Shown here one piece after another: positions 17,796 to 23,410 of a DNA stretch of 64,000 nt. The notes under the pieces are model-generated. The model made no database searches, had not been told where the DNA came from, and saw only the letters and a list, made by a program, of their open reading frames with translations. The stretch is from Treponema sp. (GTDB lineage: Bacteria; Spirochaetota; Spirochaetia; Treponematales; Treponemataceae), in NCBI GenBank assembly GCA_024682655.1, contig JAIKYZ010000027.1, positions 1,071 through 65,070 of the forward strand, written 5' to 3'. The first letter of the stretch is position 1, and every line of letters starts with the position of its first letter. The translations under genes were made by a program, and so were the position numbers.

Positions 17796-17909
17796 ATGAA
17801 AGTACGAACCAGTGTAAAACCTATCTGTGATAAGTGTAAGGTTATTAAAAGAAACGGCGTTGTCCGTATTATTTGTACAAACCCAAAACATAAGCAGAGA
17901 CAGGGCTAA
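17796..17909 (+). CDS. rpmJ: 50S ribosomal protein L36 (missed by the ORF track)
   Basis: hand translation [37 protein letters not shown]. Confidence 0.99.
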
Positions 17910-19301: not shown

Positions 19302-20363
19302 ATGGCACGCAAAAATTTGCTTAAAGGTTTTAAAAAGCCTAAGGGCATTACATTTGAACACAGCGTTACAAATTCTACATACGGAAAATTTATTGCCTAT
19401 CCTTTTGAAACAGGATTTGGAACAACAGTTGGTAATACTTTAAGAAGAGTTTTACTTTCTTCAATTCAGGGTTATGCAATTTCTTCTATCCGTATTACAT
19501 CTTATGATGATAGTGGAGTACCACATGTAATCAACAGTGAATTTGATAAGATTCCTAAGGTTGCTGAAGATACTCTTGAAATTATTAACACACTTAAGAT
19601 GATTCGTTTGCGTTTACCAAACGATGTAGAACAAGATACAATTAATTTTGAGTTCAAGGGTCCTGGAAAAGTTACAGGTAGTGACTTTACAAAAGAAGGT
19701 CAGCTTGAAGTAATGGAAGTAAGCAAAGACGTTTTAGTATTTACTATGAACGAAGGTGCTCACCTTGATATCGAAATTCAAGTGGATCTTGGTAGAGGAT
19801 ATGTACCTGCTGAAACTAACGAACATTACATTGAAATGGTTGGAACTATTCCAATGGATGCAATCTTCACTCCTGTTCCAAAAGTAAAATATTCAATTGA
19901 ACCTTGTCGTGTTGGTCAGAGAAATGACTATGATAAGCTCATCCTTGAAATTTGGACTGATGGAACAATCGCTCCAGTTGATGCTTTAGGTGAAGCTGCA
20001 AAGATTGCTAAAGATTTATTTGCTATCTTTGTAAACTTTAATGATAAAGATGTAATTGGAACTGATGAAACAGAAGAAGATGATGAGGATCTTCAGAAGT
20101 TACTTAATACTTCTGTTGATGACTTGGAACTTTCAGTTAGATCTTCTAATTGTTTGAAAAATGCAAATATTCGTACTATTGGCGAATTAACAAAGAAAAC
20201 AGAAGATGACATTGCCAAGACAAGAAACTTTGGTAAGAAGTCTCTACAGGAAATTAAAGAAAAACTGCAGAGTTGGAATCTTACTCTTGGAATGACAGAT
20301 TACAGTCATCTGAAGAATGCTGCAAATTTAACTAAGCAGAAGGAAGAAACAGATGAATCATAA
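19302..20363 (+). CDS. rpoA: RNA polymerase alpha subunit
   Basis: [31 protein letters not shown]. Confidence 0.99.
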
Positions 20364-20856
20364 GAATGGTTTTAATCCGCTTTCACGTACTACAGCACAT
20401 CGTCGTGCTATGTCACGCAATATGGTAACTTCTCTCTTTAGATATGAGCGAATTACAACAACTAAAGCTAAAGCACTTGAAGTTAGAAGAAGTGCTGAAA
20501 AATTAATCACTAGAGCTAAAGTTGATTCTGTACACAATCGTCGTGAAGTAGCTAAATATATTCAGGATGAAAAAATTCTTGACAAACTTTTTAAGGATAT
20601 CGCTCCTCGTATGCAGGAACGCAACGGTGGTTATACACGCGTACTTAAATTAGGATACCGTCAGGGTGACGCAGCAGATGTTGTTATTCTTGAATTAGTT
20701 GATTATAAGCTTGAGAAAGCCGATGAAGAAACAAAAAAAGAAAAGAAGCCTGCTAAAAAAGTAGAAAAACCAGCAAAAGCTGCTGATGATACTAAGAAAA
20801 AGGCAACAACAAAAGCAAAGAAAACCGAAACTAAAAAAGAAGAAGCTAAAGCATAA
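20353..20856 (+). CDS. rplQ: 50S ribosomal protein L17 with Lys/Glu/Ala-rich C-terminal tail
   Basis: [22 protein letters not shown]. Confidence 0.99.
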
Positions 20857-20887
20857 CTTGTTTTAGTGGATTTTTAAGGAGTCCGAA

Positions 20888-21115
20888 ATGTCAAAAAACC
20901 ATCGTGGATCAGGTATCAGATCATTAGCTTCTCATGGAAGAGGAACTTGTGCTATTTGTGGTAAAACAGATATTAAAGTTCTTTGGGAAAAAGAAATTAA
21001 TGGTCAGACAGTAAAGATTTGTAAATATTGTAATGCAGCTCTTAAAAATAAGGCTAGAAAAGAAGCTCCTGCTGCTGCAGCAGAAGCACCAGCTGAAGAA
21101 AGTGCAGCTGAGTAA
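20888..21115 (+). CDS. small basic Zn-ribbon protein of unknown function, last gene of the ribosomal superoperon
   Basis: SD AAGGAG, CAIC...CKYC, codon choices like the r-protein genes, terminator directly after. Confidence 0.8.
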   Translation: MSKNHRGSGIRSLASHGRGTCAICGKTDIKVLWEKEINGQTVKICKYCNAALKNKARKEAPAAAAEAPAEESAAE

Positions 21116-21137
21116 TTCTAAATATTTATGAACTATC

Positions 21138-21172
21138 AAATCCGTCTTATATACTAAGGCGGATTTTTTTTA
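21138..21172 (+). terminator. terminator closing the ribosomal superoperon
   Basis: AAATCCGTCTTA/TAAGGCGGATTT stem plus T-run. Confidence 0.85.
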
Positions 21173-21200
21173 TTAATTCTTACTTATAATAATTTTTTAA

Positions 21201-21229
21201 TTGTACATTCAGCAAATATTAGTTATTAT
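21201..21229 (+). promoter_or_regulatory. putative sigma70 promoter for the PilZ gene
   Basis: TTGTAC-N17-TATTAT. Confidence 0.5.
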
Positions 21230-21286: not shown

Positions 21287-22219
21287 ATGAGTGTTTCTAA
21301 TAGTCATAAAATTTCTAATTATTACGATTTTTATCGTGATAAAGAAATTGTGTTTACGAAAGCAAATTTAAGATATTTAAGAATGGATCCACGCCAGATT
21401 TACATTAAATGTAATGGTGGACAGTGGCCTTGTATTCTCAACTCTTCTTCTTTACAACAAGCAAAGATAATTGTTGGAACTTCAAGTGGTGTATATCTTG
21501 AAATCAATAAAAGCAAAAATAAGAATTTGGTCCTAAGTTTACGCTATTGCTTTATTGATCAAAATAACCAGCCAATTCAATTCTTTGTTAATTCAAATGT
21601 TGTTGATATTAAACCTTATAAAGAAACAAATGAATTAGCTTTGATTACCCTTGAATTTACCCAAAGGCCACCTGATGATTTAATTTCTAGAATTGGTGAA
21701 TTTCTGGAAGTTAATCATAATTTTGAAACAAGAAAAGAAGAAAGAATTGCTATTAATGAAAATTCTTTGAGACAATTAGCAATTCCAAAGGAAGAATCTT
21801 TTATTTTTATTGCTGATGTTCCTAGAAAGTGTATCTTAAAAGATTTATCTTTTGGTGGAGCAAAAGTTTTAACTGTCGGAATTCCTAAATTTCTTGTGGA
21901 AAAAAGAACAGATTTACGCTTAATCTTCTCTGATACTGCAGAAAAAGTTTCTATTCCTGGTGTTATTAAAAGCGCAGACTTTTTACCAGGTAGAAAAGAT
22001 ATTGCAATTATCCATATTGAATTTATTCAGTCTGAAACTCCAATGGCCTATAAATTCCATATCAACAGTTATATCACTTCTTATCAAAAGCAAATGATTC
22101 AAAATCAAATTAAGAATCAAATTGCTGAAAGAAATTCTGAATTAAAGGCTGCACAGAAAAAAGCTGAAATTGAAAAAGCAATGAGCAAAAATGCAGCTGA
22201 AAATCAAGAAAATGAATAA
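21287..22219 (+). CDS. PilZ-domain c-di-GMP receptor (PlzA-like architecture)
   Basis: RKEER (RxxxR) and DLSFGG (DxSxxG) motifs after an N-terminal beta domain. Confidence 0.8.
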   Translation: MSVSNSHKISNYYDFYRDKEIVFTKANLRYLRMDPRQIYIKCNGGQWPCILNSSSLQQAKIIVGTSSGVYLEINKSKNKNLVLSLRYCFIDQNNQPIQFFVNSNVVDIKPYKETNELALITLEFTQRPPDDLISRIGEFLEVNHNFETRKEERIAINENSLRQLAIPKEESFIFIADVPRKCILKDLSFGGAKVLTVGIPKFLVEKRTDLRLIFSDTAEKVSIPGVIKSADFLPGRKDIAIIHIEFIQSETPMAYKFHINSYITSYQKQMIQNQIKNQIAERNSELKAAQKKAEIEKAMSKNAAENQENE

Positions 22220-22258: not shown

Positions 22259-23410
22259 ATGAATCCAGCAAATCCTTTAGAGTCGATTTATTATATTAAC
22301 ATTCCTGAAAATTTTAATCCTTCAAACGGGGCTTTTCAGATTGATAAAACAATTCAACTTCCTGTTCAGAGAAAAACAACCGAGGATCCGGGAAATTTTA
22401 ATCCAGAAGAAATTACAACTGAACAGATTCTTGCTGGTATTTTGACTGTTCTTGCTTATGATTCTAAAAATGCCCACTTAGATTATTACCGTTCAATTAT
22501 TAAGCAGGTAAAACCAAATATTAAAAAAGAACTTTGCGAAGCAGCAATTTTAAAAACAAAGAATGAAGATTACGAACTTGCAGAAGAAATCTTTAGAGCC
22601 TTGCTTGGTTTTGATCCAGAAGATTCTGCTGTTATCTTAAATATGGCTTTATTCTTAGATCAAAGAGCTGATGCTTATAGACGTTCTGGATTAAATGAAG
22701 ATGCCGATGCTTATGATTCAGATTCTTTGGCTTATTATGAAGAGGCAATGGAAGCAGATCCACCTTTAGCTGATGCCTTTTTTAATGCAGGATTTTTCTA
22801 TATGAAACAACACCAGTTTAGAGAAGCAAAGGATGCCTTTGAAACTTACCTTGCTTTGACTTGTGATGTTTCTGACGATGAACTTGGAGAAAATGGCGTT
22901 TATAAAAAGGAAAGAGCCCAGGAAATTGTTAATAATATTAATGCCCAGAATATTGATGATGAAACATATAAAGCTGCCTATGATTTTATAAAGAAGGGCC
23001 AGGAAGAAAAAGGTATTGAAGCTATAAGGGAATTTTTACAGTCTAATCCAAAAGTTTGGAATGCCTGGTTCTTATTGGGCTGGGGTCTTAGAAGACTTGA
23101 AAGATATTCTGATGCTAAAACTGCATTTTTACAGGCTGTAAAATTTGGTGCAGATAAAAATGTTGATACTTATAATGAACTTTCTTTGTGTTATGTTCAG
23201 GAAAAGGATTTTAAATCTGCTAAAGATTGTCTTATGAAGGCTTTTGCAATTGAACCTGAAAATGTGAAAATTATTTCAAACTTAGGATATCTGGCCCTTG
23301 CTGAGGGAAATAAAGAAGAGGCAAGAAAATATTTTACAAGTGTTCTAGAATTTGATCCTAAAGATGCAATTGCGGCTAATGAACTATTAAAATTAGAAAA
23401 AGAAAACTAA
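22259..23410 (+). CDS. tetratricopeptide repeat protein
   Basis: repeated TPR patterns (AFFNAGFFY, AWFLLGWGLRRL, SNLGYLAL). Confidence 0.85.
   Translation: MNPANPLESIYYINIPENFNPSNGAFQIDKTIQLPVQRKTTEDPGNFNPEEITTEQILAGILTVLAYDSKNAHLDYYRSIIKQVKPNIKKELCEAAILKTKNEDYELAEEIFRALLGFDPEDSAVILNMALFLDQRADAYRRSGLNEDADAYDSDSLAYYEEAMEADPPLADAFFNAGFFYMKQHQFREAKDAFETYLALTCDVSDDELGENGVYKKERAQEIVNNINAQNIDDETYKAAYDFIKKGQEEKGIEAIREFLQSNPKVWNAWFLLGWGLRRLERYSDAKTAFLQAVKFGADKNVDTYNELSLCYVQEKDFKSAKDCLMKAFAIEPENVKIISNLGYLALAEGNKEEARKYFTSVLEFDPKDAIAANELLKLEKEN

Follow-up and report, generated by a model that had tools for sequence, protein, structure and literature searches.

A highly expressed TP_0214-family miniprotein encoded at the end of a Treponema ribosomal-protein operon may be ribosome-bound

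The last gene of a ribosomal-protein operon in Treponema encodes a 75-residue miniprotein of a catalogued, function-unknown family, PF27208 (TP_0214), which has more than 1000 members. The gene occupies positions 20888 to 21115 (stop codon included) of the forward strand of the window, the 64,000-nucleotide stretch of Treponema sp. DNA analyzed here. With a probability of about 40%, we infer that its product is an RNA-binding protein bound to the ribosome, either as an accessory ribosomal protein or as a tight partner; the RNA binding, the subunit and the site are equally putative. This reading is proposed because of co-expression with ribosomal-protein genes, abundance, charge, and the behavior of forms with and without zinc ligands (C+/C-), and because of operon membership and synteny across an entire order, together with the rsmA/ksgA and thrS contexts found elsewhere.

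The ATG of the miniprotein gene lies 31 nt after the end (20856) of rplQ, its upstream neighbor in the same transcription unit, which encodes bL17 (20353–20856, forward strand; identified from the ORF list and by Pfam Ribosomal_L17, E 8.6e-38). The Shine-Dalgarno (SD) sequence AAGGAG, at 20876–20881 of the forward strand, is positioned 6 nt 5' of the ATG. Both the coordinates and the strong SD confirm what had been proposed by an earlier sequence-only reading of this DNA, which had also placed the gene in the same terminator-bounded unit as rplQ. This placement holds: in a consensus scan of the forward strand, no promoter-like or terminator-like site was found from rpoA/rplQ to the miniprotein ORF, and the sole forward-strand terminator of the alpha operon is an intrinsic terminator directly 3' of the gene (21138–21174), with a 12-bp stem, a 5-nt loop and a U-run. 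Its hairpin (21138–21166) folds at -14 kcal/mol (z = -5.0), which was not equalled by any of 200 shuffles. The ORF is a real gene, and it is the last of the ribosomal-protein operon. Position alone is no proof of a ribosomal function, since genes without a ribosomal product, rpoA and secY among them, also occur in ribosomal-protein operons.

Two features on the reverse strand were rejected. A 71-aa antisense ORF (20924–21139) and a terminator-like hairpin (21087–21065) are both by-products of the repeated GCA, GCT and GAA codons that specify the Ala/Glu tail of the miniprotein. Several other features of the region were recorded. The 37-aa rpmJ (bL36), too short for the ORF list, is located at 17796–17909 inside the 247 nt that separate secY from rpsM, and the interval from secY to rpmJ is without adk, map and infA. 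The bL17 protein carries a Lys/Ala/Glu-rich C-terminal tail of ~45 residues that is similar to a histone H1 tail (residues about 120–167, positions 20710–20856); this tail differs in length among relatives, with a bL17 of 177 aa at one related locus (L010) and of 164 aa in T. pallidum. Beyond the terminator, a promoter-like site (21202–21229) precedes a gene for a PilZN3 + PilZ protein (21287–22219, E 5.9e-54), likely a c-di-GMP receptor, and this is followed by a gene for a TPR protein (22259–23410).

Codon usage was assessed with a codon adaptation index (CAI) weighted on the ribosomal-protein genes of the window's cluster, and 1718 ORFs from the genome, each 200 aa or longer, served as the reference. 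The miniprotein gene has a CAI of 0.834, which tops every gene of the cluster and falls at the 99.8th percentile of the 1718 ORFs, bearing out the codon preference of ribosomal-protein type that had been noticed earlier. Its log-likelihood ratio is +0.119 per codon compared to a genome mean of -0.17, a value reached by 4% of random 75-codon chunks.

The T. pallidum orthologue supplies expression data. In a genome of 1,139,633 bp (G142), the gene located directly after rpoA-rplQ and 5' of grpE-dnaK (L030:1501–1698) encodes a 65-aa protein that matches the published Tp0214/TPANIC_0214 (WP_010881662.1) letter for letter. Tp0214 is the type member of the family; the window protein is 48% identical to it (E 6.7e-15), and a common rpoA-rplQ-gene order was found, identifying the two as orthologues. 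They differ in that the window copy has four Cys and an acidic Ala/Glu/Pro tail, whereas Tp0214 has lost three Cys and has a basic tail.

In one proteome study, TP0214 (7 kDa) heads the 50 T. pallidum proteins of highest abundance with an NSAF of 19.6, above L34 and S18 (Osbak 2016, PMC5015957). This top rank was not reproduced in a later study, where TP0214 was not among the highly abundant proteins (Houston 2023, PMC10600179); the lack of agreement is a point against the ribosomal reading. The abundance tables of the later study rank Tp0214 at 102 and 144, beside L5, RRF, trigger factor, L21, S19 and S17, and report a sequence coverage of 84.6% and detection in 8 sample sets, compared to 1 for L17 (PMC10600179). 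Tp0214 transcripts were at 220–576 in vitro and 793–866 in rabbits, compared to 69–130 and 187–189 for rplQ and 342–425 and 741–768 for rpoA, and Tp0214 was among the genes that are higher in vivo, alongside rpsO, rpsS and rpmC (De Lay 2021, PMC8525777). Mass spectrometry detects Tp0214 at an abundance like that of ribosomal proteins. High expression of the gene is supported by codon usage in the window and by proteomics and RNA-seq for the T. pallidum orthologue, and operon anatomy, codon bias and the T. pallidum RNA and protein levels support co-transcription and co-expression with ribosomal-protein genes.

The same co-expression evidence could be produced by a transient factor for ribosome biogenesis, hibernation or quality control, one that acts on immature or idle subunits and stays outside the translating ribosome. 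The differing abundance of Tp0214 between the T. pallidum proteome studies would fit such a factor. However, abundance at the level of ribosomal proteins and the codon bias are above what is usual for assembly factors, and the miniprotein has no similarity to known factors.

Conservation beside rplQ had been set in advance as a test that could overturn a ribosomal role. Within the order it was upheld, as the rpoA-rplQ-gene order is present at 44/44 Treponematales loci examined, with an AAGGAG or GGAGG SD sequence 5' of the orthologue in every one of them. The distance between rplQ and the gene has a median of 14 nt and ranges from -17 to 64 nt, with one outlier of 289 nt. In two genomes of the same genus (G017, L010:1501–2352; G020, L011), rplQ is followed after 3 nt by the miniprotein gene and then, after 21 nt, by rpsD. 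In these two genomes, where rpsD is directly 3' of the miniprotein gene instead of 5' of rpoA (either relocated or as a second copy), the miniprotein gene is internal to the ribosomal-protein operon. In a further genus (g15; L019, L020, L022, L024 and L027) the orthologue appears to start with GTG (VSKAHRGKG...) and to overlap the end of rplQ by 17 nt, with GGAGG upstream, and its translational coupling to rplQ would be tighter than that in the window.

The gene was found in 40/41 relatives from the window's order. A larger sample of Treponematales gave 375/401 genomes (256/262 of those of high quality) and 100/104 genera, almost always with a single copy. A profile search of 301 genomes of the phylum detected the gene in every member of the order that was sampled, in five genomes that belong to two further families of the class, and in two genomes of other classes; no family member was found in seven sampled genomes of family f8, which are Borrelia-sized (1.0–1.8 Mb), or in about 250 other Spirochaetota genomes. 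When a profile of short members was used, more than 1000 proteins were retrieved, many of them from Paenibacillus, Cohnella, Fontibacillus, Tuberibacillus, Cloacimonetes and metagenomic lineages. The TP_0214 family is near-universal in Treponematales and patchy elsewhere, and it is not confined to spirochaetes. The proposal of a lineage-specific spirochaete protein must be given up, as the family is also present in Paenibacillaceae, Cloacimonadota and other phyla and is absent from most Spirochaetota. This patchiness, which extends to the absence from Borrelia-sized genomes, argues against a ribosomal protein.

Outside Treponematales the link to rplQ is lost, and the claim of conservation beside rplQ does not extend beyond the order. 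In Cloacimonetes the gene is located 60 nt 5' of rsmA/ksgA, and in one uncultured lineage it is located 37 nt 5' of thrS and divergent from truA. In 7/10 lineage contexts it is a stand-alone gene with unrelated neighbors. No known RNA leaders or riboswitches were found 5' of the stand-alone copies. One stand-alone homologue (G134, L051:1–5201) lies ~2.7 kb 3' of the end of a 23S-5S rRNA operon, after era (on the opposite strand), clpP and a gene for an EEP-family nuclease. Translation-linked contexts account for 3/10 (Treponematales, Cloacimonetes and the thrS lineage), a mild enrichment that is not significant and is at most suggestive. The loss of ribosomal context outside one order and the predominance of stand-alone copies count against the ribosomal reading. 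The position next to rsmA/ksgA, which encodes a late 30S assembly enzyme, and a patchiness resembling that of hibernation factors would suit the transient ribosome factor described above, which we nevertheless regard as improbable in view of its expression level.

The stand-alone contexts also bear on a different explanation, that the miniprotein is an abundant general nucleic-acid binder, such as a nucleoid protein or RNA chaperone, which is co-expressed with the ribosome and is not a stable component of it. Most non-treponemal lineages carry it as a single gene on its own, and the patchy phyletic pattern is what would be expected of accessory nucleoid proteins. In its small size, strong basicity and abundance the protein can be compared to a 7-kDa chromatin protein, and it is absent from solved ribosomes. 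On the other hand, a general nucleic-acid binder does not readily account for the tight coupling to the rplQ operon throughout the order, at times between two ribosomal-protein genes, or for the two further translation-linked contexts, and the miniprotein is unlike any known nucleoid protein. This explanation deserves to be taken seriously, although it appears unlikely.

The sequence of the miniprotein consists of a basic core and a tail of opposite charge, with pI values of 10.05 for residues 1–58 and 4.05 for residues 59–75. Alignments across phyla delimit a conserved core of ~56 aa, in which M1, K3, R6, G7, R18, G19, C21, C24, K30, C45, K46 and C48 vary little or not at all; most invariant positions are basic. 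The N-terminus reads M-(S/A/P)-K, a start that is common to many ribosomal proteins. Residues 1–20 (20888–20947) form a conserved basic segment, MSK(N/A)HRGxG...GRG, that was recognized from the alignments. A basic N-terminal arm had been described here; the basic character and its conservation stand, whereas a floppy arm is not predicted, since these residues are modelled confidently within the domain (pLDDT 86–89). The cysteines C21, C24, C45 and C48 (codons at 20948, 20957, 21020 and 21029) have the spacing CAIC-x20-CKYC and are invariant among C+ members, and this conservation and the AlphaFold2 secondary structure together point to a C4 metal site spanning residues 21–48 (20948–21031). 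A basic alpha-helix is predicted after the second CxxC (residues 46–59, 21023–21064; AlphaFold2 pLDDT 85–94). The Ala/Glu/Pro tail, residues 59–75 (21062–21112), is acidic and of low complexity, as had been noted, with a pLDDT of about 50. In other members its length varies from none (56-aa forms ending in ...ANKK, in other Treponematales families) to more than 50 Ala/Glu/Pro residues, so that the tail is a variable element specific to some lineages. An acidic tail is unusual in a ribosomal protein and is a further point against the ribosomal reading.

AlphaFold2 models, built from an alignment of 82 sequences, had a mean pLDDT of 82 for the window protein (85–94 over residues 1–60) and, for a Cloacimonetes member of 58 aa, of 83.6. 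The two models contain the same elements, namely two short N-terminal helical turns, a C21xxC24 knuckle, a beta-hairpin at 33–44 and a helix opened by C45xxC48. The predicted fold is, with good confidence, a treble-clef-like C4 zinc finger and not a two-hairpin ribbon. The sequence-only reading, which had called the motif a zinc ribbon, was correct about the four Cys; the second CxxC begins a helix in the AlphaFold model, and a treble-clef-like arrangement is indicated instead.

Both models were compared to 350,542 PDB chains using Foldseek, and nothing was found at E <= 0.001. Top matches of the first model, themselves non-significant, were to the ClpX zinc-binding domain (ZBD; E 0.16–0.9, TM 0.36–0.6), and further non-significant neighbors at E 1–5 were FYVE, ZZ, PHD, UPF1-CH and eL24/Rlp24. 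Other generic fingers ranked first with the second model. That the best structural neighbors, although non-significant, are protein-binding fingers (ClpX ZBD, FYVE and ZZ) is evidence against a ribosomal protein. It raises the question of a ClpX-ZBD-like protein-interaction module, such as a decoy or adaptor of ClpXP. The ClpX ZBD (PF06689, PDB 2DS5–2DS8) is similar in its C4 spacing (CxxC-x18-20-CxxC), its beta-hairpin and its helix at the second CxxC, and weak HMM matches to zf-C4_ClpX and clpX were also obtained. However, none of these matches is significant (PF06689 scored 12.5 bits compared to a gathering cut-off of 27, E 0.14) and the second model favors other fingers. The ClpX ZBD is the N-terminal domain of an AAA+ unfoldase that binds proteins, and it is without the invariant basic MSKxHRGxG segment. 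A cationic antimicrobial peptide may be considered alongside, as Tp0214 was listed as a candidate by predictors only (Houston 2022, PMC9200625). These predictors respond to any cationic peptide, and the miniprotein has no signal peptide or export context. Either function is highly improbable.

Resemblance to bL28, bL33, eL24, bS22 and bL38 had been put forward in favor of a ribosomal protein, and it could not be maintained: no sequence or structural similarity to them was found with Pfam, the PDB or Foldseek. Searches of all PDB sequences with phmmer and with the family profile returned nothing significant. For bL28, bL31, bL32, bL33, bL36 and uS14, no Pfam ribosomal family scored above its cut-off and no PDB match was above threshold. 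Neither bS22 nor bL38 (bb0162 of B. burgdorferi and bL38 of F. johnsoniae) was matched in the PDB by phmmer, profile or Foldseek; eL43 appeared only at E 0.75–2.2, and eL24/Rlp24 only at E 2.5–5 in Foldseek. As judged from these sequence and model comparisons, the miniprotein is not any solved ribosomal protein. No chain of a solved ribosome, that of B. burgdorferi included, is alike in sequence or fold, which argues against the ribosomal reading. None of the solved ribosomes comes from a lineage with the TP_0214 family; no Treponema or Paenibacillus ribosome structure was found in the PDB, and none of Treponema in the literature searched.

Accessory ribosomal proteins have been found by cryo-EM in bacteria, namely bS22, bL37 and bL38 of M. 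smegmatis, F. johnsoniae and B. burgdorferi (bb0162) (PMC10618245). As with the miniprotein, these are tiny, were previously unannotated or hypothetical, and have a patchy distribution, and sequence analysis gave no sign that they were ribosomal (PMC10618245). They differ in that bL38 and bS22 are without a zinc site and that TP_0214 has no PDB similarity to bS22, bL37 or bL38. In addition, the Borrelia-sized genomes lack the TP_0214 family.

A second comparison is offered by the loss of cysteines in the genus of T. pallidum. In 6/6 sampled genomes of this genus (1.1–3.4 Mb; L070–L074 and L078), three of the four ligands are lost and the region reads CP(V/I)TGQTG...(V/I)SK(V/I)GRA; the hairpin is retained despite this loss, as is the N-terminal motif. 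Several metagenomic members display the same pattern. Because the T. pallidum genus does without three of four ligands, the zinc is likely to be structural and dispensable. Makarova et al. reportedly described C+/C- forms of Zn-ribbon ribosomal proteins in 2001. The miniprotein resembles C+/C- zinc proteins of the ribosome (uS14, bL31, bL32, bL33, bL36, bS18 and bL28) in being small and basic with a single structural Cys4 site, in its ribosomal-protein operon, codon bias and abundance, and in the loss of ligands by a whole clade that retains the protein. The treble-clef ribosomal proteins uS14 and eL24 are likewise small and basic with a single structural Cys4 site. It differs from both groups in having no sequence similarity or significant fold similarity to them and no paralogue pairs, and in that ribosome binding by TP_0214 is hypothetical. 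No Zur-style pairs of C+ and C- paralogues were present in any of the 375 genomes with the gene. As uS14 and bL36 of the T. pallidum genus keep their zinc ligands, general ribosomal zinc economy was ruled out as a cause. The Cys loss is thus not part of such an economy, and this too is a point against the ribosomal reading.

The protein had been described as unannotated, which is no longer accurate: NCBI nr already contains the exact window protein, under the name of a hypothetical protein, and it is assigned to PF27208. The assignment is a precomputed domain annotation; in a collection of 5.8 billion proteins, PF27208.1 is attached to the window-identical protein and to all 419 + 1009 homologues, which places the miniprotein in the TP_0214 family. 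Our own Pfam and NCBIfam scans of the window protein gave only sub-threshold matches to generic zinc fingers (zf-BED, CPxCG, ClpX, aMBF1 and Lar), and, with 82 family members, a Pfam scan matched FYVE, BED, NrdR, PaaD and the like without pointing to any one family consistently. In the literature searched, no operon-wide analysis was found, nor any mention of the zinc-free clade or of the wider phyletic range.

Some JGI records name family members aMBF1 or Elf1, and NCBI records use hypothetical protein. Both names were rejected. The match to aMBF1 (TIGR00270) scored 18.6 bits compared to a cut-off of 110, with only the zinc-finger part aligned and no HTH, and Elf1 is absent from the Pfam matches of members, this label resting on a weak finger match. 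These records are one of the reasons to consider a small subunit or regulator associated with RNA polymerase; another is that in all Treponematales the gene shares an operon with rpoA and is located two genes 3' of it. Small zinc-finger proteins are known to bind RNA polymerase elsewhere, as do DksA/TraR and the archaeal RpoP/RpoN. However, the Elf1 and aMBF1 labels are sub-threshold zinc-finger matches, the relocated gene never accompanies rpoA, rpoB, rpoC or rpoZ, and the protein is much more abundant than RNA polymerase subunits. A polymerase partner is therefore considered quite improbable.

The ribosome-bound reading can be set out as follows. The 3' end of the rpsM-rpsK-rpsD-rpoA-rplQ mRNA would encode the protein, and its translation would reach the level of ribosomal proteins. 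Its ~6-kDa basic core (pI about 10), followed by a variable tail, would be held by one treble-clef-like Cys4 zinc site, with the zinc having a purely structural role. As an RNA-binding protein that is an accessory part of the ribosome or binds it tightly, it may contact rRNA through the invariant basic residues K3, R6, R18, K30 and K46, and the acidic tail, where present, would face the solvent. A stronger form of this reading is that TP_0214 is an unrecognized stoichiometric ribosomal protein of Treponematales (the agent of syphilis among them), Paenibacillaceae and Cloacimonadota, which exists both with and without bound zinc. This would need a new bL or bS number and is possible, if on the doubtful side.

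TP_0214 is a function-unknown, highly expressed gene that is near-universal in a whole bacterial order, and one study placed its T. pallidum orthologue first in abundance among the proteins of that cell. If it is ribosomal, it would add a new accessory protein to the catalogue of the bacterial ribosome and a fresh case of zinc-ligand loss in a translation protein. It would also give the ribosome a clade-specific surface feature in a pathogen against which ribosome-targeting drugs are used. Should it prove non-ribosomal, it would still be an abundant nucleic-acid-binding miniprotein that merits characterization.
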